Positions 35,871 to 53,855 of a DNA stretch of 64,000 nt are shown piece by piece. The first letter of the stretch is position 1, and each line of letters opens with the position of its first letter. The position numbers and the translations under genes are program-made. The notes below the pieces were generated by a model. It had not been told where the DNA came from. It worked only from the letters and a program-made list of their open reading frames with translations, and ran no database searches. Origin of the DNA: Candidatus Liptonbacteria bacterium (GTDB lineage: Bacteria; Patescibacteriota; Minisyncoccia; UBA6257; 2-01-FULL-56-20); NCBI GenBank assembly GCA_016204335.1, contig JACQKU010000008.1, positions 10,913 to 74,912 of the forward strand, in the 5' to 3' direction.

Positions 35871-37142
35871 ATGGCAAAAACGGGTAAAAAAAGAAAAAAA
35901 ACGGTGGAAACGAGAACGACATGCCGCATCTGCGGGAGTTCCAATCTCGCGCGGTTTTTGAGTTTGGGAGAAACGCCGCTCGCGGACGCTTTCGTCGAAC
36001 GGGAAAATCTCGATAAGCCGGAGAAAAAATTTCCGCTTGACGTGGCGGTCTGCGCCGATTGCAATCTGGTGAAACTTGTGAACATCGTCGACCCCGAGTT
36101 GCTCTTCGGAGACAACTACGCGTTCTATACGTCGGCATCGCCGCAAGCTGTAATTCATTTCCGAAAATACGCGCACGAGGTGATGCGGAGATTTCCCAAA
36201 CTCGCGAAGAAGCTCACCGTCGATATCGCGTCGAATGACGGCGTGCTCCTCCGGCCAATGAAAGAGCTCGGGGCGAAAGTGCTCGGCGTTGACCCGGCGA
36301 AGAACGTCGTACCGGTCGCGCGCGCCGCCGGAATAGAAACGATAAACGATTTTTTCGGCGAGCGGTGCGGGGCGACCATTGTCAAGAAGTACGGGAGAGC
36401 GGGGCTCGTTCTTGCGAATAACGTTCTCGCGCACGTGGACGACGTGCATGATTTTATCAAAGGCGTACGATTGCTCCTTGACCCGAGGGGCGTTTTTATT
36501 TTTGAAACGCAGTATTTCCCGGCTCTATTTTTTAAGAACCAATTCGACAACGTGTATCACGAGCATCATTCGTTTTTTGCTTTGCGTCCGCTTATACGCC
36601 TGCTTGAGGCGAACAATATGAAGATATTCGATGTTGAGAAAATTGACACCCAGGGCGGGTCGATTCGGGTGTACGCCGAACATAAAAAAGGTCCGCATAA
36701 CATCCGGCCGATTGTCGGAAAAATGGTTCGTGCGGAACTTGATATGGGGCTTGACAGGGTAGAGACATACAAAGGGCTTCAGGAGCGCGCGCAGTATGTA
36801 AAAAAAGAGCTTTTGCGGATTCTCACGGATTTGAAGCGGCGGGGGAAAAAAATCGTCGGATACGGCGCGCCCGCGAAAGGCAACACGCTCCTCAACTTTT
36901 GCAAAATAGGCCCGGAACACCTCGATTACATTATTGACAAAACGTACTTCAAGCACGGGAAGTTCACGCCCGGCACGCACATTCCCGTGTTCCCGGTGGA
37001 AAAAATACAGGAGGACGGTCCGCCGGATTATTATCTTCTGCTTGTCTGGAATTACGCGCCGGGAATTTTGAAGCAAGAGAAAGAATTCAGGAAGAGAGGA
37101 GGTAAATTCATTATTCCGATTCCAGAGCCGGTCATTGTTTAA
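35871..37142 (+). CDS. NDP-hexose C-methyltransferase (TylC3/TcaB9-like: Zn-ribbon + SAM MTase + C-methyltransferase C-terminal domain), paralog 1
   Basis: CRICGSSNLARFLSLGETPLADAF (Cys4-type Zn ribbon), SAM-binding VDIASNDGVLL, and the C-terminal IVGYGAPAKGNTLLNFC domain. Confidence 0.75.
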   Translation: MAKTGKKRKKTVETRTTCRICGSSNLARFLSLGETPLADAFVERENLDKPEKKFPLDVAVCADCNLVKLVNIVDPELLFGDNYAFYTSASPQAVIHFRKYAHEVMRRFPKLAKKLTVDIASNDGVLLRPMKELGAKVLGVDPAKNVVPVARAAGIETINDFFGERCGATIVKKYGRAGLVLANNVLAHVDDVHDFIKGVRLLLDPRGVFIFETQYFPALFFKNQFDNVYHEHHSFFALRPLIRLLEANNMKIFDVEKIDTQGGSIRVYAEHKKGPHNIRPIVGKMVRAELDMGLDRVETYKGLQERAQYVKKELLRILTDLKRRGKKIVGYGAPAKGNTLLNFCKIGPEHLDYIIDKTYFKHGKFTPGTHIPVFPVEKIQEDGPPDYYLLLVWNYAPGILKQEKEFRKRGGKFIIPIPEPVIV

Positions 37143-37156
37143 TTTCTTGTTATTTT

Positions 37157-38245
37157 ATGCAAGGCGTAAAAAGAATATTTTTCATACCGCCGGGCTCGTC
37201 CGCCCGCACCGGCAAACATTTACTTGAAGACCTCAATTTGGTTTTTTTGGACAAAACATTTTTTGATTTTTTTCGGGAGCGTGGAATGGAACTTTATACG
37301 ATAGACGCCTGGAGGCCGGAATCCCACAACGATAAAGAAGACGCGCTTGCGGTTTTCAACCATCCGGACGAAGGGTTCCTTCTTCGCGCGTTCTATTATC
37401 TGAAATTCGCCGGAAAAGGGAGGGGAAAATATTCGGTCGACAAAAAAACGCTTAACGTTCTCCTTGGCGCGTTTTCGCGGAAAATTCTTTTTCAGGCAGA
37501 GCCGCCGATTGTCATGCCGTGGCCGTACCGGCATATGAAAAAACTGAAAAAAGAATACAGCTCTGTTTTTTCGACCATTCATCTCGAAAGCGAAGGAGTC
37601 AAGTATTTTATTCTCCCATACAATTACACCGACAGGTTCGGAAAAAATAAAATCGGGGAACACTTCGACGCGCCCAAAGAAAAATTTCTCGTGATGATTA
37701 ACTCCAACGCAAGGCCGCATGGCTACTTCAAATATGAGCTCTATTCGGAGCGTCTGCGCGCCATAAAATATTTTTGCGACAAGCCGGGATTCGACCTTTA
37801 CGGAGTGCGCTGGGACAGGAAGCCGTTTCTGCATTGGAGCTACGCGCCATACGTGAAAAAGGTCTGGCGCGGGAGCATTCCCGGGGATAATATCGAGAGT
37901 AAGCTTCCCACGCTCGCCATGTACAAGTTCACGCTGCTTTTTGAAAACAGCACTTTCCCGGGTTATGTGGATATAAAACTTCTCGACCCGCTGGTTACGG
38001 GGACCGTCCCTGTGTATTTGGGAGCGCCCGATATTGCGAATTATATTCCCAAAGGATGTTTTATTGACATGCGTGATTTCAGAACCTATAATGAACTGGA
38101 AAAATATCTCCGCGCGATGAGTGATACGGAGCGGGAACGGTATCGTTCGAACATCCGCGATTTTTTCCGTTCGGAACAGGCAAAGGTTTTTACTCCGCGT
38201 TATTTCGCGGAAGTCGTGCATCGGGCCGTTCAGGAAGTTTTTTGA
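37157..38245 (+). CDS. GT10-family alpha-1,3/4-fucosyltransferase-like glycosyltransferase
   Basis: YKFTLLFENSTFPGYVDIKLLDPLVTGTVPVYLGAP matches the GT10 FxLxFENS...TEK...IPVxxG motifs. Confidence 0.7.
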   Translation: MQGVKRIFFIPPGSSARTGKHLLEDLNLVFLDKTFFDFFRERGMELYTIDAWRPESHNDKEDALAVFNHPDEGFLLRAFYYLKFAGKGRGKYSVDKKTLNVLLGAFSRKILFQAEPPIVMPWPYRHMKKLKKEYSSVFSTIHLESEGVKYFILPYNYTDRFGKNKIGEHFDAPKEKFLVMINSNARPHGYFKYELYSERLRAIKYFCDKPGFDLYGVRWDRKPFLHWSYAPYVKKVWRGSIPGDNIESKLPTLAMYKFTLLFENSTFPGYVDIKLLDPLVTGTVPVYLGAPDIANYIPKGCFIDMRDFRTYNELEKYLRAMSDTERERYRSNIRDFFRSEQAKVFTPRYFAEVVHRAVQEVF

Positions 38246-38260
38246 GATAGAATGAGATGA

Positions 38261-38384
38261 ATCCCGTTAGAAACAACAGCTCCATGATTTTTACTACAAT
38301 GTTTCATATTTCAAACAAAAAAGTCGATTCAACTAAAATCGTTGATGTACGGTCGCCCGGGGCGGCCCGCTTCTAATGGGATGA
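38261..38384. repeat. Motif C module 1: ATCCCGTTAGAAACA - 92-nt spacer - TCTAATGGGATG (ATG = GT4 start)
   Basis: 15-nt terminus after the GT10 stop. A degenerate inverted copy supplies the GT4 start codon. Confidence 0.5.
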
Positions 38385-39607
38385 AAGTCGCTTTGGTTTG
38401 TTACAACTTGAAATGGGAAGGCGGGGGACAGCGCCTGATTTACGACTTGGCTCACGTTCTAACAGATACGGGCCACCGCGCGACGGTTTTTGCTCCGGAT
38501 ACCGAATATGAACCCAATGCCTACGCGGAGCTTCAGCGCGGCGTCGATATCCGGCTGGTCAAAATGCCCTCTCCATACAATTGGGCTCCGCTTCGCGCCA
38601 ATGCGTTCCGCCGCATGCTGTACAAATTTAAAAAGGAGCGGTGGCTCATCAACGCGGCGCGCATAATGGCAGCGCAGTTTCCGGTCGGCGAGTACGATGT
38701 TATAAATCTTCACGACCAGGCGTATAAATTCGCCTATTTTTACCGCAAACGCGAGCCGAACATCCGCATCGTCTGGACGAATAACGATGCGCAGTATTTA
38801 TATTTACCGCATCCGGAGAGCGTGATTTACGATTGGGGCAGTTGGATTTACAATAAATTCAAAGATTATGCCGAATCGCGGTTTTTCAAGGTATTCGATG
38901 CGGTTCAGGTTATCGAACTTGTGAACGCGCGCTGGACGGAAGAACGCGGAATGAAAGCGAACATTATCCGCCCCGGCGTCGATTTCGAAAAATTTTACGA
39001 CCCGGTTCGCGATGTCACATCCAGGGCAAAACAGAAAAAAGTCCAGATTCTCGGGTTCGGGAATCTTAATCCTTCGCGGCGTTATGAAAATATCGTCGAA
39101 GCGGTAAAAATTCTCCGCGACCGCGGCTATGACGCAAACGCCAAAATCGTTTGCCGCGATTTGTGGAAGAACGCGGCGCTCCGCGAAAAGCTTCTTACGC
39201 TCACCAAGGACTGGGGTCTCGACATAGAATTCAATTTTAACGGCGTGAGCGAGGAGAGAGCCCGGGCGTTGAGACATGAGAGCGACGTGATGGTACTTGC
39301 CATCCATCTGCCGCCGCCGAGGGACGGATTCCCCTGGCAGCTTATCGGCATCGAAGGAATGGCCGCAGGTCTGCCCCTCGTTCTTTCTAGAAAAAACGGC
39401 CTTTGCGAGGTTCTTACCGACGGAGAGAACGCTCTCTTTTTTGAACCGCTCCACGCCGAGCAAATTGCGGATAAAGTGCAATTTTTAGTCGATAATCCGG
39501 AACGACGGAATGAAATCGCGAAAAACGGCCAAGAATTTGTGCGCAAAGAACTTCAATGGAGCCACTATACGAAAGAAATACTGCGGCTTTTTGAGGGAAA
39601 GAGTTAA
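38381..39607 (+). CDS. GT4-family (group 1) glycosyltransferase
   Basis: C-terminal EGMAAGLPLVLSRKNGLCEVLTDGENALFFEP (E-x7-E-like GT4 motif). Confidence 0.8.
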   Translation: MKVALVCYNLKWEGGGQRLIYDLAHVLTDTGHRATVFAPDTEYEPNAYAELQRGVDIRLVKMPSPYNWAPLRANAFRRMLYKFKKERWLINAARIMAAQFPVGEYDVINLHDQAYKFAYFYRKREPNIRIVWTNNDAQYLYLPHPESVIYDWGSWIYNKFKDYAESRFFKVFDAVQVIELVNARWTEERGMKANIIRPGVDFEKFYDPVRDVTSRAKQKKVQILGFGNLNPSRRYENIVEAVKILRDRGYDANAKIVCRDLWKNAALREKLLTLTKDWGLDIEFNFNGVSEERARALRHESDVMVLAIHLPPPRDGFPWQLIGIEGMAAGLPLVLSRKNGLCEVLTDGENALFFEPLHAEQIADKVQFLVDNPERRNEIAKNGQEFVRKELQWSHYTKEILRLFEGKS

Positions 39608-39614
39608 CGTTTTC

Positions 39615-39629
39615 TGTTTCTAACGGGAT
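39615..39629. repeat. Motif C copy TGTTTCTAACGGGAT followed by ATG (start of NUDIX gene 39628)
   Basis: Perfect reverse complement of 38261-38275. It lies 7 nt after the GT4 stop. Confidence 0.6.
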
Positions 39630-40092
39630 GAAAAAGTATTCTGTCGTCCGAAAAAGAATTCCCGAAAAGATTTATAAGGAAATCCACCGTTCATTGCCGA
39701 TAGTTTGCACGGACCTCGTCGTAACCGATGGAAAGCGGTTTTTTCTGGTAAGACGGAAAAATAAACCCGAAGCCGGCCGGTGGTGGTTTCCGGGCGGCAG
39801 AATTTTTAAAAATGAACTGTTAAAAAATGCGGCGCTAAGATTTTTAAAGCGCGAAACCGGGCTCAAAGGAAGTAAGCCAAGCCTATTGGGATTTTACGAG
39901 TACTTTGCGACGCCGGGGTATTTCCCCCGGATAAGTTCACATACCGTCATTTTTGTATTTAAAATAAAAGCTTCTTCAAATTTAAAATTCCGCCTGGATA
40001 GACAAAGCTCGGCCGCCAAATGGTTTTCAAGAATTAATCCGGCGTGGCATCCATACATCAAAACCTTTTTAAGGAAAGCTGGTTTAGAGTAA
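39628..40092 (+). CDS. NUDIX hydrolase, GDP-mannose mannosyl hydrolase (Gmm/NudD)-like
   Basis: RWWFPGGRIFKNELLKNAALRFLKRETGL parallels the Gmm variant Nudix box ([29 protein letters not shown]). Confidence 0.6.
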   Translation: MKKYSVVRKRIPEKIYKEIHRSLPIVCTDLVVTDGKRFFLVRRKNKPEAGRWWFPGGRIFKNELLKNAALRFLKRETGLKGSKPSLLGFYEYFATPGYFPRISSHTVIFVFKIKASSNLKFRLDRQSSAAKWFSRINPAWHPYIKTFLRKAGLE

Positions 40093-40138
40093 TGACATTA
40101 TGAAAATTCTCAGCTTGGCGCAATAAGATTTATATTCA

Positions 40139-40642: not shown

Positions 40643-40675
40643 AACGGCTATCCTTAATGGCTATATAAGTCGGCG

Positions 40676-41737
40676 CTAAATATAATTTAACTCGTTAAGG
40701 CGTTCAATGACGCCAGTCGAATTGTTTTTTTGTTGTATAGCGAGGACGACCTCGGCTTCCGACACAATTTTTCTTAACGTACCCAAAATTTTTACCGGGT
40801 TTTTGCCCACTGCGGTTTCCGAAGAAAGAATCAGGCCATTCACGCCGTCGAGTACAAGGTTGATTATATCGTTGACTTCGCCTCTTGTAGGTTTGTCTTT
40901 GTGGAGCATGTTTTCAAGGAGGTGAGTAGCCACGAAAATAGGTTTCCTTTCTTTAACGCACTGTTTAGTGATGAGTTTCTGAACAAACGGTATTTTTTCG
41001 TAACCGATTTCCGTTCCGAGATCGTTTCTGTCGATAAGAATAGTGTCGCTTGCCGCGATTAGAGAATCAAGATTGTTAATTGCCCGGCGCGTTTCGATTT
41101 TCGAGGAAATCAGGATATTTTTTTTGCCGATAAATCGCCGTACTTCCTCCACATCTTTCGCGGCGCTGACGTACGACAGGGAAATCTCGGAGATTCCGTA
41201 TGGGAGAGCTTTTTTTATTACCAAACGGTCTGCGTCGGTAAGCATCGTTTTCGGTTCAATCTTTTTTTCGAGTCGGATGTTTTTTGGCACGCTCATTTCG
41301 CCTCCGCGCACTATCACGCACTCCAGCCGCGGGGACGGATCTTTTTTTCGCCCCAATACTTTTAGCACGATCCGGTTGTCGTCTATGGATATTTTTTCGC
41401 CTCTCGGGATGGCGGCGATGAATTCGGGGCGCGTGATCCATAAGGATTTTGATTGCATCGAAGAACCAAACGGTATTATTGAGATATGTTCGCGGCGTTT
41501 CAATATCGCCGTTTTTCCGAAAGGAGCCATCATTCTTGTTTCTTTTCCCTGGGTGTCAATGATGATGGGAATTTTCTTCGAGAGCGCGCGAATGTCCTCG
41601 ATAAGCTTTATCGCGCGTTCAGGGGGGGTGTGGCTAAGATTGATGCGAAGCGCATCGGTTTTTTTCCTTATGAGACCGGAAAGGGTTTTTGCGGAATCGG
41701 ACTTCGGTCCTATTGTGCAAATAATTTTTGTTTTCAT
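40676..41737 (-). CDS. Pyruvate kinase-like protein (barrel and cap domains only; lacks the usual C-terminal domain)
   Basis: MKTKIICTIGPKS...RINLSHT, ISKIETRRA, DRNDLGTEI, VATHLLENM...PTRGEVNDI follow the PK barrel. 353 aa versus about 470 for typical PK. Confidence 0.6.
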   Translation of the reverse strand: MKTKIICTIGPKSDSAKTLSGLIRKKTDALRINLSHTPPERAIKLIEDIRALSKKIPIIIDTQGKETRMMAPFGKTAILKRREHISIIPFGSSMQSKSLWITRPEFIAAIPRGEKISIDDNRIVLKVLGRKKDPSPRLECVIVRGGEMSVPKNIRLEKKIEPKTMLTDADRLVIKKALPYGISEISLSYVSAAKDVEEVRRFIGKKNILISSKIETRRAINNLDSLIAASDTILIDRNDLGTEIGYEKIPFVQKLITKQCVKERKPIFVATHLLENMLHKDKPTRGEVNDIINLVLDGVNGLILSSETAVGKNPVKILGTLRKIVSEAEVVLAIQQKNNSTGVIERLNELNYI

Positions 41738-41752
41738 GGTTATAATTATGCG

Positions 41753-43144
41753 CTATATCAATGGTTTTCCGGAGAGTTTTTTATACTCTTTTATCCCGAG
41801 CGCCTTGAGAATTGTAGGGGCGATTTGAACGGTTTCGACCTGCCCGAGGTTTCCTAAGGGGCCGCCTTCTTTTTTTAATATAATGACGCCTTCGGGAGCA
41901 TGCCCGGCATCGTCGGTCCCGACAGTAGTTCCTTCGGAATACAGCCCTTTATTCCCGATATCGTTATTGGTTCCGTAGCGAAGGTTGTCGAAATACACTA
42001 CTGCGTCAGGGGCTTTATCGCCTTTTTTCCTGTAAATTTTTGAAGTATCGTATACCTTTGTATTCAATTTTTCGCCTTTTACGCCTCTAATTAGCGGAAG
42101 TTCTTTACTAATCCGTCTCAAAATTTTCACCCTGTTTTTTTTGTCGTAAATATAAACATTTGCCTGATATCCTTCAGTGGCTATGACACTCGTTTTATCC
42201 CAGTCTATGGTTTCGTAGTCGAGTCGTTTCGGGCCGTTTGCGTAAAAATCCGCAAATTCTTTTTTTACGGCCAAAAAACCTTTTTCCCGCAGCCAGTCAT
42301 TTAAATTTATCCGGCGAATCATGTGGTCCATTCCATGGTCGGACACCACCATCACCGTTGTTCCGGAATCCATTTTTGAATGTTTCATAAATTTTCCGAA
42401 CTCCCCATCCACGTATTTATAGAAATCCAATACCGCGTTTTTGTAGGGTGAATTTTTGACGTAGCGTTCATGAGTGGGGTCAATATGCGCCCAGAACATA
42501 TGGTGAAGTCGGTCTGTGCCGATAGTCACAAAATCAAAAAGGTCCCAATCCATTTTTTCAAAAAGATAGCGGGCAATTTTGAAATGCTGTTTGGTCATTT
42601 TATAACTTTGCGAGATGAGAAAATCCAAATTCATTTTCTTATATCCCAGAAATCCGGCCACATCAAACATGTAATCTTTGCCGAAAAGAAGTTCTTGGAT
42701 TTTCTTCTTGAAAGAAACCGGATAGACGCTCTTATCGTCAAAGCTTGGAGTCAAAAAATCGGTTACCATTACCCCGTTAATTTTTTTTGCGGGATAGGTG
42801 AGAGGGATATTGAGCGCAATTGTCTTCTTTCCTTTTCTGCTCAGCATATCCCAAAGCAGAGGAGTTTTTATATCGGTAGATGTAACGAGCGAAGGAGTGC
42901 GGTAATGGCGTCCTTGTTTTGCCATATAACTTTGAATACCGGTTTCTCCGGGGTCCCTGCCGCTGTTGATAGAAGTCCAGGCGACGGTTGAAGTCGGCGG
43001 AACGGTGGAGTTCAAGATTCCGTAAGAACCTTCTTCGATAAGACAGGAAAAGTTGGGCAATTGGTTTCTATAACGCCCGAATACCAGTTTAGGGACAAAT
43101 CCATCTATGCCGAAAAGAAATACTTTTTGCTTTTTGGGTTTCAT
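41753..43144 (-). CDS. Alkaline-phosphatase-superfamily type I phosphodiesterase / nucleotide pyrophosphatase (PF01663-like)
   Basis: FLFGIDGFVP...STVPPTSTVAWTSINSGRDPGETG (metal-binding T/S nucleophile region) and MVVSDHGMD. Confidence 0.65.
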   Translation of the reverse strand: MKPKKQKVFLFGIDGFVPKLVFGRYRNQLPNFSCLIEEGSYGILNSTVPPTSTVAWTSINSGRDPGETGIQSYMAKQGRHYRTPSLVTSTDIKTPLLWDMLSRKGKKTIALNIPLTYPAKKINGVMVTDFLTPSFDDKSVYPVSFKKKIQELLFGKDYMFDVAGFLGYKKMNLDFLISQSYKMTKQHFKIARYLFEKMDWDLFDFVTIGTDRLHHMFWAHIDPTHERYVKNSPYKNAVLDFYKYVDGEFGKFMKHSKMDSGTTVMVVSDHGMDHMIRRINLNDWLREKGFLAVKKEFADFYANGPKRLDYETIDWDKTSVIATEGYQANVYIYDKKNRVKILRRISKELPLIRGVKGEKLNTKVYDTSKIYRKKGDKAPDAVVYFDNLRYGTNNDIGNKGLYSEGTTVGTDDAGHAPEGVIILKKEGGPLGNLGQVETVQIAPTILKALGIKEYKKLSGKPLI

Positions 43145-43149
43145 CGCAG

Positions 43150-44289: not shown

Positions 44290-44292
44290 GGA

Positions 44293-44904: not shown

Positions 44905-44905
44905 T

Positions 44906-46333: not shown

Positions 46334-47149
46334 TCAATCTTTCCCTTTCCAAAAAAATGTATTGTTAAGATCGACTATTTTGTGAACGTATCCCATTTTT
46401 TCTAATTTTTGCGTAATGAAGGGTGTCGGGTCTTCTATGAGAAGTTTTATATCGGGGTTGCGCCGTATTGTTTCCATTGCGCCCCGAAATACGGGGTCAA
46501 CTACGCCCTCAACGTCAATCTTTATAAAGTCAGCGCGCTGGGGGCTTATATCGTCTATCCGGACCGCATCGACACGATACTCGCGTATTGTCTTATCGTC
46601 ATCTTTGCCGAAATTCGATCCTATTTTATGTTCATAATCTTTTCTTGGATCTTCCATACTTGACCATGTCCACGCATCTCCGACAACATACAGAGTTTTC
46701 TTCTCTTGAGAATCAGACGCGGCGGCTTGCTTTGAAGACACAACATTCTCGAAGCCATTTTCTTTAATGTTTTTGGTAAGAAGCGCGAAGCTGTTTGGTT
46801 CCGGCTCTATTGCAACTACCTTTCCCGTTTCACCCACCAATTTCGCCGCAATGAGCGTGAACCATCCTATTGATGCTCCGATATCAATGAATACCCCACC
46901 CTCTTGCAAGTTCTTAAAAAGTAATTGAGTGGACTCCGGTTCTTTGGCACCGAATTTTTCCGCCAATGATTCACGTGGGTCAAGCCAAATTTTTAGTCCG
47001 TGCTTGTGCACAAACGATTCTTTTTTGCCTTTCAAAAATTTCTCGAAACGAACATTTAAATTTCGTATCCATGTAATTTTACTAAGACCCAAGCCGCGCA
47101 CTATATGGCGGCGGAAAAATATATAAATTTTGATTAAGATTTTTTTCAT
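46334..47149 (-). CDS. FkbM-family methyltransferase
   Basis: VFIDIGASIGWFTLIAAKLVGETGKVVAIEPEPNSFALLTKN. Confidence 0.7.
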   Translation of the reverse strand: MKKILIKIYIFFRRHIVRGLGLSKITWIRNLNVRFEKFLKGKKESFVHKHGLKIWLDPRESLAEKFGAKEPESTQLLFKNLQEGGVFIDIGASIGWFTLIAAKLVGETGKVVAIEPEPNSFALLTKNIKENGFENVVSSKQAAASDSQEKKTLYVVGDAWTWSSMEDPRKDYEHKIGSNFGKDDDKTIREYRVDAVRIDDISPQRADFIKIDVEGVVDPVFRGAMETIRRNPDIKLLIEDPTPFITQKLEKMGYVHKIVDLNNTFFWKGKD

Positions 47150-47245: not shown

Positions 47246-48355
47246 TTATGAATTCGCGTAAAACTCTTTTATTTTTTCAATAACCTCATCTTTTTGTTCT
47301 TTGGTGATATGCGATGCTGACGGAAGTTGGAGCCCGTTCGCGCCGTAGTGGTCAGCCCACTTGAAATCACCCTTGTCGTTGTAAATCGGCTGGGCATGCA
47401 TGGGGATAAAGAATGTCCTTGTTTCTATCCCGTTCTTCGCAAGATATTCCATTAGCTCGTCGCGCCGCGGCGCCAAGAGTCCGAACATCCAAAATACGCA
47501 AAAAGTGTTTAGTGGTTCGGGAAAGAACCTTAATCCGGGGATATTTTTTAGGCCGTTCAGGTAATATTTCGCATTCGCCCTTCTTTTCAGAACCAATTCA
47601 TCAAGCCGCTTTAGTTGCGCAAGACCAAGTGCGGCACCTAACGCGGACATTCTAAGATTCCAGGCGATCGTTTTATGCCAGAAGTGTTTTTCATCATCAA
47701 AGTCATAACCTCGTATGTGGCGGAGCTTGTCGGTTAATTCGTAGTTATTCGTAAGGATCATACCTCCTTCTCCTGTGGTCATTATTTTGTTGGCATAAAA
47801 AGAAAAACAACTTGCTTCGCCGAATGTTCCCATAAGTTTTCCTTTGTATTTTGCGCCGTGTGCTTCGGCTGTGTCTTCGATAACAAGTAGATTATGTTTT
47901 TTAGCGATATCCATTATTTTGGACATGTCGCATGGTTCGCCGTATGCATGCACAGGCATGATGGCGCGCGTTTTTACAGTTATTTTTTCCTCAATTTTAC
48001 TTGGGTCGATGTTGAAACTTTTTTCGCTGGAGTCCACGAAAACAGGTGTCGCGCCGCAGTGGCTTACGGCTCCAGCGGTTGCCACCATTGTAAAACTTGG
48101 CATAATCACCTCATCGCCAGGAACAATTCCAAGCGCTTTCAGAGTCAAAAAAAGCGCGGAGCCGCCGGAATTCACGGCCACTGCATACTTCATCCCGAAT
48201 TTTTCCGCAAATGCGTCTTCCAGTTTTCCAACCGGCGAGGCTATCGAAGAGATTTCTTTGTTTTTTATGGCATCAACCACATAATTTATCTCAAGCTCTG
48301 ATATGTCCGGTTCGCAGACGCGGATTTTCACCGGATATTTATTGACACTGGGCAT
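47246..48355 (-). CDS. DegT/DnrJ/EryC1/StrS-family PLP-dependent sugar aminotransferase (GDP-perosamine synthase-like by context)
   Basis: VIEDTAEAHGAKYKGKLMGTFGEASCFSFYANKIMTTGEGGMI with the Schiff-base Lys region. Confidence 0.85.
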   Translation of the reverse strand: MPSVNKYPVKIRVCEPDISELEINYVVDAIKNKEISSIASPVGKLEDAFAEKFGMKYAVAVNSGGSALFLTLKALGIVPGDEVIMPSFTMVATAGAVSHCGATPVFVDSSEKSFNIDPSKIEEKITVKTRAIMPVHAYGEPCDMSKIMDIAKKHNLLVIEDTAEAHGAKYKGKLMGTFGEASCFSFYANKIMTTGEGGMILTNNYELTDKLRHIRGYDFDDEKHFWHKTIAWNLRMSALGAALGLAQLKRLDELVLKRRANAKYYLNGLKNIPGLRFFPEPLNTFCVFWMFGLLAPRRDELMEYLAKNGIETRTFFIPMHAQPIYNDKGDFKWADHYGANGLQLPSASHITKEQKDEVIEKIKEFYANS

Positions 48356-48369: not shown

Positions 48370-49338
48370 TTATTTAGATTTTTTTTGCAAGTCGGCCAAA
48401 TCTGCTTCCACCATTAGCTTCACAAGTTCTTTGAATTTTATTTTTGGACTAAAACCAAATGCGTTTTGCGCTCTTGAGATATCGCCTACGAGTGCCGTGT
48501 TTTGCGCCGGCCTTAAAAATTTCGGATTTATTTTGACATATTTTTGAGAGTCAAGTCCGACGGTGGCAAAGGCCTCGTCTACGAATTCTTGCACCGAGTG
48601 CGCTTCTCCGGTGCAAATGATATAGTCATCCGCTTTTGGCTGTTGCATGATGTTCCACGCCGCCTCCATGTATTCTTCGGCGTAGCCCCAGTCGATTTTA
48701 GCCGAGAGGTCACCCAATTCAAGAACATCCTGGAGGCCGAGCGAAATTCGAGCGACGGACTTGGTTATCTTTCTTGTGACGTATTCGTCTGGTCTCCGCG
48801 GCGATTCGTGATTGTAAAAAATGGCAGTGGCAACGAACATGTCATACGCTTCGCGATAAAAGCGGCTTACGACGTAGGCCAGGACTTTAGCGCATGCATA
48901 GGGGCTCTGCGGCCGAAACGGAGTGTTCTCGTTCTGCGGATGTTCCGTTGCCTTGCCGAAGACATTCGAAGTGATGGGCTGGAAGAATTTTATGTCCGGA
49001 TTTACTTGTTTTACGATTTCAAGAATTTTTCCGACAGCCACGCCGGTAACATTATATTGATATTCCACGATGTCAAAACTCCAGCCAGCGTGGTCCTGGT
49101 CGGCTTCGTTGTAGATTTCTTCCGGATTAACTTCGCGGATTACCTTCCAGAGCGAGTTCGTGTCCAAAAGGTCGCCGCGATGAAGTATCAAAGAGTCCTT
49201 TATGTGTTCAATGTTTTTGGTGTTGCCGGTCGCGGTGCGCCGGATAAACCCGTGGACTTCGTATCCTTTTTCAAGAAGTATTTCGGCAAGATATGACCCG
49301 TCTTGCCCCGTGATGCCTAAAATGAGAGCTTTTTTCAT
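48370..49338 (-). CDS. GDP-mannose 4,6-dehydratase paralog
   Basis: [40 protein letters not shown]; about 60% similar in motif pattern to gmd at 12608. Confidence 0.8.
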   Translation of the reverse strand: MKKALILGITGQDGSYLAEILLEKGYEVHGFIRRTATGNTKNIEHIKDSLILHRGDLLDTNSLWKVIREVNPEEIYNEADQDHAGWSFDIVEYQYNVTGVAVGKILEIVKQVNPDIKFFQPITSNVFGKATEHPQNENTPFRPQSPYACAKVLAYVVSRFYREAYDMFVATAIFYNHESPRRPDEYVTRKITKSVARISLGLQDVLELGDLSAKIDWGYAEEYMEAAWNIMQQPKADDYIICTGEAHSVQEFVDEAFATVGLDSQKYVKINPKFLRPAQNTALVGDISRAQNAFGFSPKIKFKELVKLMVEADLADLQKKSK

Positions 49339-49411
49339 GCTTGTCAATTTTACCATCTTATCAACTCTTGAGAAAATATGAAAGAGGAGATGGATTGTCC
49401 TGCCCCGTTAT

Positions 49412-49921
49412 TCATTTCCTCCGGCGCCGATTATGAAAATGCCGCGCGATAAATCGGCGATGGATGGTAATCATCTTTCGCGGCAGGCGCGATGCGTCCC
49501 AAAATTTCATGTCCGCGGTTTCCCGAACCGTTTTCCTTGGCTCGCAAAGAACGTACACCGAGAGCGGTCGTCCGTAGGGATGTTCGCCTTCGCGCCATTT
49601 ATCGGCATCGAGGACTTCGAGATACTTCACATCGAAATCCAACTCGCGTTTTGCGACGCGCGAGCAGGTTTCCTGGATCGTTTCATTCCAGATATTATAG
49701 CCGCCAGGAATGTGCCAATAGCCGCGCGCGAATTTCCCCTGATAGGGCGTGAGAAGTATCTCGGCGCCATGCGTGCGTTTGCGGAGGATCACGAGTTCCG
49801 GCGCCCACATTGAAACCGCGCCATGGAGCGGTTCGAACGCTTCATCGGGAATAAAAAAATTTTGCTCGGGTATTTTTTTGAGGAGCCGCGCCAGTGTTTG
49901 CGCTTCTTTTTTCGTCATCAT
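49412..49921 (-). CDS. Divergent NUDIX-like hydrolase
   Basis: WHIPGGYNIWNETIQETCSRVAKRELD is a degenerate Nudix box. Confidence 0.4.
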   Translation of the reverse strand: MMTKKEAQTLARLLKKIPEQNFFIPDEAFEPLHGAVSMWAPELVILRKRTHGAEILLTPYQGKFARGYWHIPGGYNIWNETIQETCSRVAKRELDFDVKYLEVLDADKWREGEHPYGRPLSVYVLCEPRKTVRETADMKFWDASRLPRKMITIHRRFIARHFHNRRRRK

Positions 49922-50162: not shown

Positions 50163-50885
50163 CTAGTCGCCGAACGGGTAAGGTATGATTCCCTCCTCCT
50201 CGAGCTGGTCGCGGAGGCCGTCCGTGACCAGGCGGAAGATCGCGGCCCGCTTCGCGGCGAGGAGCTTCCCGAGCTGGGTGCGGATGCACACGCCCGACTC
50301 GGAATCGACCCAGTCGAGCGAGTAGGCGATGTCCCGGAACACCGTCCTCGGTGCCTGGTACGTTGCCTCAGGGTCGTCGAGGAAGTGTTTGTAGTCGACG
50401 ACCGGCAGATCCGCATAGTGCTGACCGGACCTTGCGAAAAGATCGCCGTCCAAGTTCACGATCCGGTCGGCGTCCATCAGCGCGATGAGCACCGGCGAGT
50501 CGTTCGAAGAGTTCTTGCCGTCGTGGCCGAGGACTGCGGCCACGATAGCATCCACTTCGGGGCCGTAGTAGCCGAAGACCGGCTCCGGGACGTGCCCATA
50601 CGCGGATGGGCGAGTCTCGGTCATAAGCCAGCTCTTGACGAGCCGGCTCGTTTCGTCAGTGGGCACTTCGCGCCGGCCAACGCCGAGCTTCTTCTGTATC
50701 ACCTTGTCGGCGTTGTGGCAGAGCCCGGCTACACCGGCGAGCTCAGCGGTCTGCTTGTCGGTCTCGTTGAGGCCGATCTGGTAGGCGATCTGGCCTACCC
50801 GCGCGGCGTGCACCCAATCGTGGTGCCCGACGAGACCGACTTCCTCGTGGCTCTTGTGGACTGCAGCGAACAAATCGGGGAACAT
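50163..50885 (-). CDS. HD-domain metal-dependent phosphohydrolase-like protein, paralog 1 (GC-rich xenolog)
   Basis: Shares ordered blocks with the next two genes (LAGVAGLCHNADKV / DADRIVNL / IIPYPFGD). Own SD (GGAGGGG) and terminator hairpin at about 50085-50115. GC content far above the window average. Confidence 0.6.
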   Translation of the reverse strand: MFPDLFAAVHKSHEEVGLVGHHDWVHAARVGQIAYQIGLNETDKQTAELAGVAGLCHNADKVIQKKLGVGRREVPTDETSRLVKSWLMTETRPSAYGHVPEPVFGYYGPEVDAIVAAVLGHDGKNSSNDSPVLIALMDADRIVNLDGDLFARSGQHYADLPVVDYKHFLDDPEATYQAPRTVFRDIAYSLDWVDSESGVCIRTQLGKLLAAKRAAIFRLVTDGLRDQLEEEGIIPYPFGD

Positions 50886-51119
50886 CTCCCAGATTCTCAC
50901 TTGCCCCTCCCTTCGGGTTAGAGTCGTTGCAAGAGCAGTTCGTCGGCAGAGATACACTCCGCCGTCAAACCGCCGGTTTTCGGTAAGGACGATACACATA
51001 CTTCCTTTCTTCAGTCGTATTCACTTTTCAAGGGCTGATATAGCGAAAGGGGCCAGGTCCGCCGAACTGCTTTTAGTGAAACATAAATCAAAAGATATGT
51101 CAAATCACCGCTCCCCCCG

Positions 51120-51821
51120 TTAATTCTTTTTTCGCGAAAACGGATACGGCCGAAGGCGGCTTTCCTTCAGCTGGTTTTCTATGTCCTGCATGAATATTTT
51201 GAGAAATGCGAACCGCTTCGCGCCGATTTTTTTTGCCTTGGGGAGCCGGAGCCATTTTTTCCACTCAAGCGAGTATGAGATGTCTTTTCCGACTGACTCG
51301 GGATGACGATAACTCGATGAGGGATGGTGGAACAGATGAATATAGTCAAGAACTGGAAGGTGTTCGAGCTCCTTCGCGCTCCGAAGGCACAGGAGCGCGC
51401 CGACATTCGCGAGACGATCCGCGTCTTTGAGCGCTACGGTTACTTTGCTGTCGCGCGGATCGTTTCGTTTGCGATGCTCCATTACTGCTTCGATCACCAA
51501 TTGTTTGTCGTTATGGTTGAGTGTGGTGTATTGTAAATATTGGATAAGTTTTTTCCGGACAAGAGTATCAAGGGTATGCTTTTTTCGGAAATGTTCCGGA
51601 ACGAGACCTCGTTCGATAAGATGATCCGTATTGTGGCATATTCCGGCAACCCACGCGAGTTTGGCTGTTCGCGCGTCGTCTGCGATGCGAACGCTGTAAT
51701 TCGCGACCATCAGCGCGTGCTCAAAGTCATGCCCGCTCTCGCTTGCCCTCACTTTTTCGTGATCGCGAATGACCATAGTAAGAAGTTCCGTGTATTTTTT
51801 GATGAGTGTTTCGATGGACAT
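51120..51821 (-). CDS. HD-domain phosphohydrolase-like protein, paralog 2
   Basis: RDHEKVR..GHDFEHAL...LAWVAGICHNTDHL...ALKDADRLANVGA...RPYPF. Confidence 0.6.
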   Translation of the reverse strand: MSIETLIKKYTELLTMVIRDHEKVRASESGHDFEHALMVANYSVRIADDARTAKLAWVAGICHNTDHLIERGLVPEHFRKKHTLDTLVRKKLIQYLQYTTLNHNDKQLVIEAVMEHRKRNDPRDSKVTVALKDADRLANVGALLCLRSAKELEHLPVLDYIHLFHHPSSSYRHPESVGKDISYSLEWKKWLRLPKAKKIGAKRFAFLKIFMQDIENQLKESRLRPYPFSRKKN

Positions 51822-51829
51822 GATTTATA

Positions 51830-52528
51830 TTATAGGAGGTGCTTGTATGTTGCGGGAAGCGGATACATCCCGATTGATTTCAATTGGCGCATAATATCGT
51901 TGAGCGCTTGGCGCATAAACTCGGCGCCCGGTTTGGAAATATGTTTTGCTTTCAGAAGCCGAATTTTCACCGATGGCTTCTCGGTCCATTCCAAAACATA
52001 GGTCAAATCTTCCACTGCTGTTTTTTCTTTGCCGAACGAATTTTTCAAGCGCATTGGCGAAACAAAATCGAAGAGCGACCTATTGTGATAATATTGCCCA
52101 ATGCGAAGGAGTACAATCGCGCCGAAATCCGCGATTCTGTCCGCGTCTTTCAGCGTTACGGTTACCCTATCATCGTTCGGATCATTTTTTTTCGTGTGAT
52201 TCATCACTGCCCGGAAAACGATTTCTTTTTCTGAAGCCGTGAGGGGAGTTTTTTGAAGATGCGCCTTAAGTATTCGCGGGGTGTTTCTGTTTCCGAACAA
52301 GCGGTCAGTGTTGTGGAGAATTGCCGCCAGCCAGGCAAGCCGCGCGGTTTTTTTATCCGGAGCGATTTTGAGCGCGGTGTTTGCCACGCGGAACGTATGC
52401 CCGATGTCGTGATGATGCCCCACTTTTTTCACTCGCGTTTTATGATCGCGCGATACTCGAGCAAGAAGCAGATGAAATTCTTTTCCCAAAGAAGGAAGCA
52501 GATAGGTAAAATCTTTCGAATTTCTCAT
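51830..52528 (-). CDS. HD-domain phosphohydrolase-like protein, paralog 3
   Basis: RDHKTRV..GHHHDIGHTF...LAWLAAILHNTDRL...TLKDADRIADFGA...MYPLP. The start codon is embedded in motif C (52528-52542). Confidence 0.6.
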   Translation of the reverse strand: MRNSKDFTYLLPSLGKEFHLLLARVSRDHKTRVKKVGHHHDIGHTFRVANTALKIAPDKKTARLAWLAAILHNTDRLFGNRNTPRILKAHLQKTPLTASEKEIVFRAVMNHTKKNDPNDDRVTVTLKDADRIADFGAIVLLRIGQYYHNRSLFDFVSPMRLKNSFGKEKTAVEDLTYVLEWTEKPSVKIRLLKAKHISKPGAEFMRQALNDIMRQLKSIGMYPLPATYKHLL

Positions 52529-52647
52529 CCCGTTAGAGACAGGTCGCCTCGGGCGACCGTAATTCAGCGGTTTTTACTGCAATCGCTTTTGGGACGGCAA
52601 GATAAGACATAGTTTAGAAATCATAGTATTGTTGTCTCTAACGGGAT
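52528..52647. repeat. Motif C module 2: ATCCCGTTAGAGACA - spacer with GGTCGCCTCGGGCGACC hairpin - TGTCTCTAACGGGAT
   Basis: 15-nt perfect inverted termini bracket the C-MT2 stop / HD3 start junction. Confidence 0.6.
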
Positions 52648-53855
52648 TTCTTCCCGATAATTCTGAATCGAGGAATCGGGACGATGAATTTTCCTCCGTT
52701 TTTGAGCCAGATTTGCTCGCGCTTCACGAATGTATCCGTGAACGCCCACGGCAAAATCAAAAAATAGTCGGGATTTTTTTTGCGCGCTTGTTCCTCGGAA
52801 ACGATAGGAATGTTTGTGCCAACGGTGAACTTGCCCCATTTTACTTTGTCTTTGTCGGCGGCGGCTGTGATTAACTTTGACGTGAGTCCATAGTATTGGA
52901 GAATGGTGTTGCCTTTTGTTGACGCGCCGTAGGCATAAACTGTTTTGCCTTTTTCAACTTCGCGTTTGATGAACTCAACGCACTTCCTTTTGTTTTCTTC
53001 GAGTCGCTTTGCGAAAGCGGGGTAATCGAATTTCGGCTCCGGATATTTGACGCTTCCCTTGTTTAGTTTTCGCGCGAACAAACGATAACTTCCTCCGTTT
53101 ATGGAATTTTCTTCGACTTTGAATATCTCGAGGCCGTTTTTCTCAAACAGGTACATCAGCGACGGATAAGAATAAAATTCAAGATGTTCGTGGCAAATGT
53201 TGCCGACGTCGTTTTTTTCGATCATGGGTTTCAGCGTCATCAGTTGCGCGATGAATACGCCGTCGTCGGCAAGGGCTTGAGCGGCGTCGCCGACGAACTG
53301 CCCCGGATTTTCCATATCGTAAAACATTCCGATGGCGGTGATGATTTTCGCTTTTGGAATCCCGAGTTTTTTATACGCCGCGTACGACCAGAAATCGTGA
53401 ATGATTTTGTCGGCGTGTTTTTTAAGCTTCGCTTGGAGATTGTTCGCGGGTTCGCAGGCGGCACGGATATAGTTCGGAGAGAAAAATTTCAAGAGCGTGC
53501 CGTCGTTCGCGCCGATATCCAAAACAACATCGTCTTTCTTGAGCTCCGCGAGTTTTTGGGAAACGCGGGCAATTTCTTTCAAATCGCTCACGATAACCGG
53601 ATTGACGGCGGACTGATACCAATAATGCCGTGAGTACATTATTTCTTGCGGGGCGGTATGTTTCAGTTGAAGCAAGCCGCACTTTGAATTTGAGCACAGA
53701 ACCAATTCCAGCGGCGCAAGTATCGGCTTTTTAGATTGTTTGGTTACGAAATCGGAAACCGCCAACTTCCCCAAAGAAAGAATTTTTTTGAGTTTTTTGC
53801 CTCCGCAGAGGCGGCAGGTTTTTCTTGTGATGTAAGATAGTTTTATTGCCTTCAT
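52638..53855 (-). CDS. NDP-hexose C-methyltransferase (TylC3-like), paralog 2
   Basis: CRLCGGKKLKKILSLGKLAVSDF Zn-ribbon, VLDIGANDGTLL, and C-terminal TVYAYGASTKGNTILQYY domain. Confidence 0.75.
   Translation of the reverse strand: MKAIKLSYITRKTCRLCGGKKLKKILSLGKLAVSDFVTKQSKKPILAPLELVLCSNSKCGLLQLKHTAPQEIMYSRHYWYQSAVNPVIVSDLKEIARVSQKLAELKKDDVVLDIGANDGTLLKFFSPNYIRAACEPANNLQAKLKKHADKIIHDFWSYAAYKKLGIPKAKIITAIGMFYDMENPGQFVGDAAQALADDGVFIAQLMTLKPMIEKNDVGNICHEHLEFYSYPSLMYLFEKNGLEIFKVEENSINGGSYRLFARKLNKGSVKYPEPKFDYPAFAKRLEENKRKCVEFIKREVEKGKTVYAYGASTKGNTILQYYGLTSKLITAAADKDKVKWGKFTVGTNIPIVSEEQARKKNPDYFLILPWAFTDTFVKREQIWLKNGGKFIVPIPRFRIIGKKSR

Follow-up and report, generated by a model that had tools for sequence, protein, structure and literature searches.

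The C-methyltransferases TylC3, EryBIII and AviG1 are of the same enzyme type as MtmC, TcaB9 and KijD1. The latter three, from Streptomyces argillaceus, Micromonospora chalcea and Actinomadura kijaniata, respectively, are solved antibiotic-pathway dTDP-4-keto-sugar C3-methyltransferases (PDB), and members of the family can also be ketoreductases, as in the case of MtmC (PMC3539893). For the lipopolysaccharide of Coxiella burnetii, a route to GDP-beta-D-virenose was proposed in silico, in which GDP-mannose is converted by Gmd (CBU0689), C3-methylated by a TylC3-like enzyme (TylCIII-like CBU0691) and processed by an Fcl-like epimerase/reductase to a C-methyl 6-deoxyhexose for the surface polysaccharide (PMC3539893, PMC3204966). 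Capsular heptoses of Campylobacter jejuni are modified by oxidation at C4, a change beside the keto group and then reduction, involving the GDP-heptose C4-dehydrogenase Cj1427, the epimerase Cj1430 and the Fcl-like C4-reductase Cj1428, together with HddA, GmhA and HddC (PMC10680097). No characterised GDP-sugar C-methyltransferase was found in the searchable literature.

Identification of two C-methyltransferase homologs

The window analysed here is a 64,000-nucleotide stretch from a Candidatus Liptonbacteria bacterium (Patescibacteria). An earlier note had described two paralogous TylC3-like enzymes in a surface-glycan island of a reduced genome, and both the setting and the type of host were borne out. 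The two ORFs were present where it had placed them, MT-A at 35871..37142 (plus strand) and MT-B at 52638..53855 (minus strand). MT-A (423 aa) has the same sequence as NCBI protein MBI4085852.1. MT-B is 405 aa long when read from 53855, and an alternative start at 53879 gives the 413 aa of MBI4085869.1; ortholog lengths (mostly 397–410 aa) make the shorter form the slightly better choice.

The predicted three-domain make-up, a Cys4 zinc ribbon, a SAM-binding Rossmann fold and a C-methyltransferase C-terminal domain, was recovered in both proteins by a Pfam scan: PF08421 (E = 1e-22 in MT-A and 4e-12 in MT-B), the class I methyltransferase domain PF13489 (4e-15 and 2e-11) and PF08484 (2e-57 and 2e-38). 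The last of these would be lacking in the O- or N-methyltransferase clade that the note had considered as the contrary outcome. In the comparison with TcaB9-like enzymes, which the note had suggested along with a domain scan, MtmC, KijD1 and TcaB9 were matched over the full length. MT-A was 38% identical to MtmC (E = 1e-90) and 33–34% to KijD1 and TcaB9; MT-B was 27% identical to MtmC (E = 2e-43) and 23–27% across the three. The AlphaFold model of MT-B (pLDDT 93) superposed on MtmC with a TM score of 0.90, and its only full-length matches in the PDB were MtmC, KijD1 and TcaB9 (TM 0.87–0.90), the next being at ~0.3. By sequence similarity far beyond chance, MT-A and MT-B were confirmed as predicted full-length TylC3/TcaB9-type sugar-nucleotide C-methyltransferases.

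MT-A and MT-B were 28% identical over the full length (E = 1e-53) and fell into two separate clades of the tree, MT-A being sister to the characterised dTDP-sugar enzymes. Judged from the alignment and tree, their paralogy is ancient, and a recent duplication was rejected. At 50% identity the family was made up of about 4,236 clusters and is thus not especially rare; more than one paralog per glycan locus was also seen among the fetched loci (L008, L023 and L042). The presence of two paralogs in a glycan island stood, but the case for rarity had been overstated.

Active-site residues

Residues Y76, H181, Y222, E224 and H225 of the TcaB9 pocket were taken as reference, being mutagenesis targets in PDB mutant entries. 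The four zinc cysteines were kept in both proteins (C18, C21, C61 and C64 in MT-A). MT-A held all five pocket residues (Y83, H188, Y229, E231 and H232), as did 117 of its 118 aligned relatives, the lone exception having Q at E224. In MT-B, H181 was replaced by D and Y222 by C, while Y76, E224 and H225 were retained, as they were in its 119 aligned relatives, and the SAM-binding motif LDIGANDG was intact. The D was found in 119/119 and the C in 116/119 sequences of the clade alignment, and the fetched loci contained 25 ORFs of the MT-B type, every one of which had both. With two of the five pocket positions changed, MT-B may have a different regiochemistry or treat its substrate in another way. 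H181 and Y222 mattered enough in TcaB9 to be chosen for mutation, and an Asp next to the enolate oxygen has no obvious fit in MT-B.

Genes adjacent to MT-A

The plus-strand block of MT-A opens with an Fcl-like (GDP-L-fucose-synthase-like) SDR of the 4-keto epimerase/reductase type (33058..34062), which matched NCBIfam GDPFucSynFcl at E = 3e-62, under the cut-off, and GDP-fucose synthases of the PDB at E = 5e-48. Fcl-like genes were found upstream of MT-A orthologs, either adjoining or one ORF away, in L006, L028, L029, L032, L034, L035 and L036. Next is a short SDR-like protein of 263 aa (34040..34831, plus strand; Pfam Epimerase, E = 2e-9), whose 53% ortholog in L009 has an Fcl-like gene as its partner. 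The next gene, adjoining MT-A, encodes a Cj1427-like SDR (34794..35798, plus strand), which was 43% identical over 306 aa (E = 2e-81) to PDB 6vo6/6vo8; 6vo6 was established as Cj1427 via a published primer sequence. In L005 the MT-A ortholog has a 66% ortholog of this SDR beside it; the MT-A-like genes of L045 and L046 also have a homolog as neighbour, though a weaker one. Among the top 150 cluster representatives 25 were long proteins, and SDR fusions were detected in eight of the ten scanned; in the two nearest to MT-A (48–51% identity), the SDR domain was best matched by Cj1427 when the window SDRs and Cj1427 were the queries.

Directly 3′ of MT-A and co-directional with it, the Fcl-like reductase and the Cj1427-like SDR is a GT10-like (alpha-1,3-fucosyltransferase-like) glycosyltransferase (37157..38245; PF00852, E = 5e-15; Helicobacter pylori FucT 2nzw, E = 9e-12), which recurs near MT-A and MT-B orthologs and is a candidate for the transferase of a GDP-activated product. 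A GT4 glycosyltransferase (38342..39607, plus strand; Pfam) has 37–39% homologs directly after MT-A orthologs in L006, L028, L029, L032 and L034. The NUDIX hydrolase after it (39628..40092, plus strand) is of the GDP-mannose mannosyl hydrolase (Gmm-like) type (NCBIfam NF011963, E = 2e-14, under the cut-off), and in many other genomes a homolog separates MT-B from Gmd.

The closest MT-A orthologs (83–87% identity; L028, L029 and L036) follow Fcl-like genes, in L036 together with Gmd and a NUDIX gene, but none had a Cj1427-like neighbour, so the source of the MT-A substrate is ambiguous. Putative GDP-heptose supply genes, encoding an HddA-like kinase, a GmhA-like isomerase, a second HddA-like kinase and a sugar-1-phosphate nucleotidyltransferase, occupy 58917..63001 (plus strand). 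Their best NCBIfam matches were all under cut-off: HddA (E = 2e-45 and 8e-48), GmhA (1e-26) and, for the nucleotidyltransferase, MurU (2e-33) and mannose-1-phosphate guanylyltransferase (4e-33), with HddC sixth (1e-18). A dTDP-glucose 4,6-dehydratase-like (RmlB-like) SDR (27670..28728, minus strand; PDB dTDP-glucose 4,6-dehydratases, E = 2e-60) would be an alternative source of a 4-keto sugar.

Linkage of MT-B to Gmd

The minus-strand block of MT-B includes a gene (48370..49356) for Gmd, the GDP-mannose 4,6-dehydratase whose product is GDP-4-keto-6-deoxy-D-mannose. It matched TIGR01472 at E = 3e-108 (362 bits against a cut-off of 415), and its named top PDB matches were GDP-mannose 4,6-dehydratases (E about 1e-89), the best match, 5uzh, bearing a code name only. 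Between MT-B and Gmd lie 3.3 kb of sequence with three HD-like genes and a gene for a NUDIX-domain protein, the latter upstream of Gmd (49412..49921, minus strand; Pfam NUDIX, E = 1e-5). A Gmd ortholog (56–81% identity) follows the MT-B ortholog in 19 of 21 species-representative loci, a linkage seen across Patescibacteria, Lentisphaerae, Aminicenantes and DPANN archaea. Two DPANN archaea have the pair fused into a single ORF, of 759 aa in L019 and 831 aa in L020.

Adjacent to Gmd is a GDP-perosamine-synthase-like PLP aminotransferase (47246..48355, minus strand; Pfam DegT, E = 5e-113), best matched by Caulobacter perosamine synthetase 3bn1/3dr4 (E = 2e-89), and homologs of at least 40% identity occur in 13 of the 21 loci. 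The Aminicenantes locus L024 has the MT-B and Gmd pair but no aminotransferase, which argues that a keto sugar, not an amino sugar, is the substrate of MT-B. The block also contains an FkbM-family methyltransferase (46334..47149, minus strand; PF05050, E = 5e-17; TIGR01444 above cut-off) with a weak RfbT-like match (PF05575, E = 2e-4).

Proposed pathways and alternatives

The note had likened both enzymes to those of antibiotic deoxysugar biosynthesis. The family was right, but the gene context (Gmd, Cj1427-like and perosamine-synthase-like neighbours) makes GDP-4-keto sugars the likelier substrates and dTDP antibiotic-type sugars less so. Our main reading, to which we give a probability of about 0.6, is that both act on GDP-activated 4-keto sugars and serve two branches. 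The analysis established the family, the fold, the conserved residues and the gene linkage; the nucleotide carrier, step order, methylated position and products are inferred from these. In catalysis, the NDP-4-keto sugar would be bound, the His/Glu pair of the HEH motif would take a proton from the carbon beside the keto group, and the enolate would attack the methyl group of SAM to give a C-methyl branch. In the MT-B branch, Gmd would convert GDP-mannose to its 4-keto-6-deoxy product, which MT-B would methylate at C3 by family precedent, or possibly at C5 given the two changed pocket residues; the aminotransferase would then turn the 4-keto group into an amine, giving C-methyl-perosamine, which the FkbM methyltransferase might later O-methylate. 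In the MT-A branch, the Cj1427-like C4-dehydrogenase would oxidise GDP-heptose or GDP-mannose to a GDP-4-keto sugar with no 6-deoxygenation, unless such a sugar is borrowed from Gmd; C3-methylation by MT-A, reduction by the Fcl-like SDR and transfer by the GT10-like and GT4 enzymes would follow. Since each methyltransferase lies near an enzyme making the needed keto sugar, the host cell probably builds branched sugars without prior chemical description.

MT-A might instead be a classical dTDP-sugar C3-methyltransferase, like TylC3, EryBIII and MtmC, fed dTDP-4-keto-6-deoxy-D-glucose by the RmlB-like enzyme, its adjacency to the Cj1427-like gene being incidental. Dependence on dTDP sugars is common to all characterised relatives (PDB entry titles; PMC3539893), to which MT-A is sister in the tree. 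However, the RmlB-like gene, 7 kb upstream, belongs to another block and is read from the other strand, whereas MT-A's own block has the Cj1427 homolog, the GDP-fucose-synthase-like SDR, the GDP-fucose-type GT10-like transferase and the Gmm-like NUDIX hydrolase, and a close ortholog shares one block with Gmd (L036). An RmlC-like (dTDP_sugar_isom) gene in the L005 MT-A cluster does not imply dTDP, because the RmlC-like cupin Cj1430 of C. jejuni works on GDP-heptose (PMC10680097). No RmlC-like gene was found in the window, nor an RmlA (glucose-1-phosphate thymidylyltransferase) among the genes scanned, where only unassigned NTP_transferase-family genes turned up, at 21005–21745 and 62060–63001. 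We consider a dTDP-dependent MT-A unlikely.

It is similarly improbable that MT-B is not a C-methyltransferase, the changes at H181 and Y222 marking N-methylation (e.g. of GDP-perosamine), O-methylation, ketoreduction or scaffolding of Gmd. These changes run through essentially the whole clade, an Asp would suit amine binding, and bifunctional MtmC is a precedent within the family, but the proposed base pair E224/H225, Y76 and the SAM motif are unchanged, and we know of no N- or O-methyltransferase in this three-domain family. A perosamine-synthase-like gene does accompany MT-B in most loci, yet the constant partner is Gmd (19/21 loci and the two fusions) rather than the aminotransferase, which L024 lacks. 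Redundancy of MT-A and MT-B, both methylating the same carbon of the same Gmd product to give one branched sugar, would account for the single clear Gmd in the window and for the MT-A ortholog in the Gmd operon of L036. It is very unlikely in view of their 28% identity, differing pocket residues, membership of two clades that are conserved independently and keep neighbours of their own, separate strand blocks and different tailoring enzymes (a reductase for MT-A, an aminotransferase for MT-B). The reading of two GDP-sugar branches is preferred.

Comparison with known systems

MT-A and MT-B share the three-domain architecture, zinc Cys4 site, SAM motif and HEH catalytic motif of MtmC, TcaB9 and KijD1, but occur in a Patescibacteria MAG within a surface-glycan island instead of a secondary-metabolite cluster, among GDP-sugar genes (Gmd, Cj1427-like, Fcl-like and perosamine-synthase-like), and MT-B differs from TcaB9 in having D/C for H181/Y222. 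The GDP-perosamine pathway of Caulobacter, Vibrio cholerae O1 and E. coli O157 is resembled by the adjacent, same-strand Gmd and aminotransferase genes, together with a NUDIX gene and the RfbT-like/FkbM methyltransferase; here, in addition, a C-methyltransferase homolog is tied genomically to Gmd across phyla. To our knowledge, a C-methyltransferase is not part of described perosamine pathways. With the C. jejuni heptose system the window has in common the Cj1427 homolog (43%), an Fcl-like SDR and best matches to HddA and GmhA, HddC being a lower-ranked match of the nucleotidyltransferase, with all of these genes in a single island. It differs in that its heptose genes are under family cut-offs, that it is without an RmlC-like cupin epimerase, and that the Campylobacter system has no C-methyltransferase as described in PMC10680097, where the word "methyltransferase" does not occur. 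The closest precedent, itself only proposed, is the Coxiella GDP-virenose route, compared here by its scheme: all three of its enzyme types are present in the window, where a second, divergent methyltransferase, coupled to a transaminase, and a dehydrogenase of the Cj1427 type occur as well.

Domains and fold of the two methyltransferases

Two genes, MT-A (35871-37142, + strand) and MT-B (52638-53855, - strand), lie on one contig of 87 kb, from a MAG of Candidatus Liptonbacteria (Patescibacteria). MT-A encodes 423 aa, identical to NCBI protein MBI4085852.1, and MT-B 405 aa, with a start possibly at 53879, as NCBI has it in MBI4085869.1; the NCBI labels are generic methyltransferases only. The earlier note had claimed that both were TylC3-like C-methyltransferases, each with a Cys4 zinc ribbon, a SAM-binding Rossmann fold and a C-methyltransferase C-terminal domain. 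Both ORFs proved real. The HMM scan which that note had proposed detected all three domains in both proteins, above the Pfam gathering scores: the zinc-binding domain PF08421 (E 1e-22 in MT-A and 4e-12 in MT-B), the class I SAM Rossmann domain PF13489 (4e-15 and 2e-11) and PF08484, the nucleotide-binding C-methyltransferase domain at the C-terminus (2e-57 over profile positions 2-160 in MT-A; 2e-38 over positions 43-160 only in MT-B).

By alignment, the four zinc cysteines of both proteins correspond to C13, C16, C54 and C57 of TcaB9. They were kept in 116-118 of 118 MT-A-clade and 118-119 of 119 MT-B-clade members, the misses being gaps in truncated sequences. The SAM motif, of the (E/D)xGxNDG type, reads VDIASNDG in MT-A, LDIGANDG in MT-B and VEIGCNDG in TcaB9, and its residues N117, D118 and G119 were invariant in the alignment (A1).

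MT-A and MT-B aligned end to end with 28% identity (E 1e-53). The best full-length PDB matches of both were MtmC, KijD1 and TcaB9 (E 1e-90 for MT-A and 2e-43 for MT-B), with identities of 38, 34 and 33% for MT-A and 27, 26 and 23% for MT-B, respectively; the alignment of MT-A with MtmC (E 1e-90) also ran end to end. An AlphaFold model of MT-B (pLDDT 93, pTM 0.89) superposed on the three solved enzymes at TM 0.84-0.90, MtmC giving 0.90, and all other PDB matches of the model covered the Rossmann domain only (TM ~0.3).

Clades and sugar pockets

A neighbour-joining tree was built from 15 sampled relatives per clade and from MtmC, TcaB9 and KijD1; these three PDB enzymes were its only references. 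The MT-A clade was the sister of MtmC/TcaB9/KijD1, and MT-B fell in a deep, separate clade. The pair stems from two clades and did not arise by recent duplication.

TcaB9 is represented in the PDB by the mutants Y76F, H181N, Y222F, E224Q and H225N, and these five positions were taken as an experimentally probed sugar pocket; the roles that we assume for the residues come from these entries. MT-A holds all five (Y83, H188, Y229, E231 and H232), as do 117 of 118 aligned relatives, the remaining one having Q at E224. With pocket and zinc cysteines kept, MT-A is a canonical member of the TylC3/TcaB9-type family. MT-B and 119 relatives retain the zinc cysteines and Y76, E224 and H225 of TcaB9, whereas Asp replaces H181 (119/119) and Cys replaces Y222 (116/119); the MT-B residues are D180 and C221 in the 405-aa numbering. 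This split, H/Y versus D/C, was valid for every homolog in 49 fetched loci of other genomes. MT-B, with the same predicted fold and a clade-wide D/C substitution, is true to the family in structure and belongs to an uncharacterised sub-family whose pocket is altered throughout.

The family is by no means small: 4,236 clusters at 50% identity matched MT-A at E <=1e-30, MT-B has thousands of close relatives, and two family members recur in one locus (L008, L023 and L042 of the fetched set). The argument from rarity in the earlier note was thus overstated, and its core reading stands.

Linkage of MT-B to GDP-mannose 4,6-dehydratase

MT-B is the first gene of a minus-strand co-directional block. 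It is followed by three HD-like genes (50163-52528, -), a NUDIX gene (-), a GDP-mannose 4,6-dehydratase gene (Gmd, 48370-49356, -), a DegT-family aminotransferase gene (47246-48355, -) and an FkbM/RfbT-like methyltransferase gene (46334-47149, -). Gmd matched TIGR01472 (E 3e-108); its named top PDB matches were GDP-mannose 4,6-dehydratases (~1e-89), the very best match, 5uzh, having only a code name. The best solved relatives of the aminotransferase were Caulobacter GDP-perosamine synthetases (E 2e-89).

MT-B relatives were sampled at one genome per species, and their loci were searched by tblastn with the window proteins. The 21 loci span Patescibacteria, Lentisphaerae, Aminicenantes and several DPANN archaea, and in 19 of them a Gmd ortholog (56-81% identity to the window Gmd) lay just downstream of the MT-B ortholog, often with a Gmm-like NUDIX gene in between. 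A perosamine-synthase-like gene was found in 13 of the 21. In two DPANN archaeal MAGs the MT-B-type protein and Gmd were fused as a single ORF with all four Pfam domains (L019:9953-12229, 759 aa; L020:9977-12469, 831 aa). These neighbours and fusions indicated that the constant partner of MT-B is the maker of GDP-4-keto-6-deoxy-D-mannose, which is exactly the kind of substrate needed by this family. In one Aminicenantes locus MT-B and Gmd close an operon that lacks any aminotransferase. This linkage argues for an order in which the keto sugar is C-methylated first and transaminated second, rather than N-methylated later.

The three tandem HD-like paralogs sit in the GC-richest part of the window (0.547), and homologs occupy the corresponding position in L007, L008, L009 and L021. 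Unassigned ORFs lying between MT-B and NUDIX had no Pfam match, even at E 5; the third (50163-50999) carries HD-like motifs in its sequence and likewise no Pfam match. B12-binding radical SAM enzymes recurred no more than a few kb away from MT-B orthologs in Lentisphaerae, Woesearchaeota and Aminicenantes loci (L001:15129-16529, L003:10367-11815 and L024:7313-8971), and may provide further methylation chemistry for the same glycans.

The MT-A block and its Cj1427-like SDR

MT-A lies in a block of eight co-directional genes, in the order Fcl-like (GDP-L-fucose-synthase-like) SDR, short SDR, Cj1427-like SDR, MT-A, GT10-like, GT4 and two NUDIX genes. The Fcl-like SDR (33058-34062, +) matched solved GDP-fucose synthases (E 5e-48), and the GT10-like protein matched alpha-1,3-fucosyltransferases in the donor-binding region. 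The SDR directly upstream of MT-A (34794-35798, +) had 6vo6/6vo8 as its sole strong PDB match (E 2e-81; next match 8e-28). Primer Cj1427cF918, published for Campylobacter jejuni Cj1427 (PMC3546167), encodes, when reverse-complemented, RAFKMMKV, which in the 6vo6 chain forms the C-terminal segment. Thus 6vo6 was identified as C. jejuni Cj1427, a GDP-heptose C4-dehydrogenase, with which the window SDR shares 43% identity over 306 residues (E 9e-92).

In locus L005 a 66% ortholog of this SDR adjoins an MT-A ortholog (55%), and an RmlC-like cupin and other SDRs are encoded there as well. Of the top 150 cluster representatives, 25 were long proteins, and 8 of the 10 long ones scanned were an MT-A-like domain fused to an SDR. 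With the window SDRs and Cj1427 as queries, the SDR domain of the two fusions nearest MT-A matched Cj1427 best (32-33%). The closest MT-A orthologs (83-87%) are without a Cj1427-like neighbour, and a strict pairing of the Cj1427-like SDR with MT-A was therefore dropped. Their upstream genes are Fcl-like, and in L036 also Gmd and NUDIX, the order there being Gmd, NUDIX, three Fcl-like genes, a ~310-aa ORF and the MT-A ortholog. The substrate link of MT-A is less clean than that of MT-B.

The SDR that directly precedes the MT-A ortholog in L005, and likewise in L006, is a different gene from the SDR next to MT-A in the window: the Cj1427-like ortholog of L005 lies downstream, and the upstream neighbour in L006 is Fcl-like. 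The ~310-aa conserved ORF preceding the closest MT-A orthologs (L028:9029-9985, L029:1057-1986 and L036:6695-7624) had no similarity to the window proteins used as queries. A perfect TTGACA-17-TATAAT promoter consensus (38064-38092, +) falls within the 3'-terminal part of the GT10-like gene, ahead of GT4; scanning the MT-A block for promoters and terminators was uninformative.

Putative keto-sugar supply and other genes of the island

Three candidate makers of NDP-4-keto sugars are encoded in the window: Gmd, the Cj1427-like SDR and a dTDP-glucose 4,6-dehydratase-like (RmlB-like) SDR (27670-28728, -), the last on the strand opposite to the MT-A block. A tblastn search of the window with the RmlC-like protein of L005 found no RmlC-like C3/C5 epimerase of the Cj1430 type (best E 0.4). 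At 58917-63001 (+) lie two HddA-like kinases, a GmhA-like isomerase and a sugar-1-phosphate nucleotidyltransferase, all below the curated cut-offs. HddA (twice) and GmhA were the best NCBIfam matches of kinases and isomerase, the two GHMP kinase paralogs flanking the SIS isomerase (58917-61546); the sugar phosphate that they handle is uncertain, since all three fall below family cut-offs. For the nucleotidyltransferase, HddC was only the sixth match, after MurU and mannose-1-P guanylyltransferase.

Mid-island, at 43150-44289, lies a sulfate adenylyltransferase (ATP sulfurylase) that scored above its NCBIfam cut-off. It is flanked on one side by a pyruvate-kinase barrel-only protein (40676-41737) and a type I phosphodiesterase/nucleotide pyrophosphatase (41753-43144), and on the other by a sulfatase-family protein (44906-46300); these genes (40676-46300) may point to sulfated glycans. 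A 364-aa SDR (57789-58883) matched the Epimerase profile in two stretches (residues ~5-153 and 180-294), which suggests, at the sequence level, an insertion in its Rossmann domain. The island has three further genes for SAM methyltransferases, two of generic class I (26795-27523 and 32291-33019) and one of FkbM type (46334-47149), which with MT-A and MT-B makes five in ~27 kb.

Proposed chemistry and alternatives

By homology, each enzyme would bind SAM together with an NDP-4-keto sugar; the carbon beside the keto group would lose its proton to the conserved His/Glu pair (HEH motif), and the enolate would then be methylated. The substrate of MT-B would most likely be the Gmd product, GDP-4-keto-6-deoxy-D-mannose, and transamination of the methylated sugar would give a C-methyl-perosamine-type sugar, perhaps with later O-methylation. 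MT-A would take a GDP-4-keto sugar made either by Gmd or by the Cj1427-like dehydrogenase next to it, and the product of MT-A would be reduced by the Fcl-like SDR and transferred by the GT10-like and GT4 enzymes. To this combined account, in which both enzymes C-methylate GDP-4-keto sugars, we give a probability of about 0.6. It builds on family membership, fold, residues and gene linkage. We infer the GDP carrier (more strongly for MT-B), the order of steps, methylation at C3 or at C5 and the final sugars.

The classical alternative for MT-A is a dTDP-sugar. To our knowledge every characterised enzyme of the family uses one, the MT-A clade is the sister of three such enzymes, and the window encodes an RmlB-like SDR; the genes that share the MT-A block include those of Fcl and Cj1427 type, and we consider this substrate improbable. 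For MT-B, its replaced pocket residues could fit a role other than C-methylation, such as N-methylation after transamination. Against the latter stand Gmd as the constant partner and the Aminicenantes pair without an aminotransferase; Y76, E224 and H225 are retained, and another role is unlikely. A third alternative is mere redundancy between MT-A and MT-B; the separate clades, pockets and neighbours speak for distinct functions, and we regard redundancy as very unlikely.

A broader reading, tentative as a whole and rather doubtful in its full extent, combines several proposals. The MT-B clade would comprise phylum-spanning, Gmd-coupled and sometimes Gmd-fused GDP-4-keto-6-deoxymannose C-methyltransferases, in which the exchange of His181 and Tyr222 for Asp and Cys would lead to a regio- or stereochemistry unlike that of TylC3, e.g. 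C5 methylation. With the perosamine-synthase-like enzyme MT-B would then yield a C-methyl-4-amino-4,6-dideoxyhexose that no described glycan is known to contain, and MT-A, acting with the Cj1427-type dehydrogenase, would turn a GDP-4-keto-heptose or -mannose, without 6-deoxygenation, into a C-methylated and hence branched heptose or mannose. If all this were true, branched sugars new to glycochemistry would be common on the surfaces of CPR bacteria and DPANN archaea.

Overall, the original observation was confirmed and its interpretation supported with refinements. What is new is the D/C sub-family coupled to Gmd and, for MT-A, the pairing with a Cj1427-type dehydrogenase; current understanding is not overturned by either enzyme. 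The MT-B-Gmd tie across bacterial and archaeal phyla, the natural fusions and the place of MT-A beside a Cj1427-type dehydrogenase give concrete hypotheses of GDP-sugar C-methylation that are cheap to test, and linkage and fusions make both this reaction and its regiochemical control directly testable. For the control of methyl position, nature already offers an experiment in the two pocket variants, D/C and H/Y. These hypotheses bear on the surface make-up of uncultivated small-genome bacteria and archaea, and the enzymes could serve for making branched GDP-sugars.

Comparison with known systems

Antibiotic deoxysugar pathways are the familiar home of this kind of enzyme (TylC3, EryBIII, AviG1, MtmC, TcaB9 and KijD1). 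C-methyl-branched sugars are, as far as we know, almost confined to antibiotic deoxysugars and a few lipopolysaccharides.

The Campylobacter heptose pathway follows a logic of oxidation, modification and reduction, and its description makes no mention of a methyltransferase (PMC10680097). The window has a Cj1427 homolog and best matches to HddA and GmhA, all its putative heptose genes being below cut-offs; the Cj1430-type RmlC-like epimerase of Campylobacter had no counterpart in the window by tblastn with the L005 protein.

For Coxiella virenose, a GDP-linked surface-polysaccharide version has been proposed in silico, with Gmd, the TylCIII-like CBU0691 and an Fcl-like reductase (PMC3539893, PMC3204966). 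We found no biochemical test of the GDP-linked C-methylation step in the searchable literature. All three types of this scheme, Gmd, TylCIII-like and Fcl-like, are encoded in the window too, and L036 unites Gmd, Fcl-like genes and an MT-A ortholog in one block.
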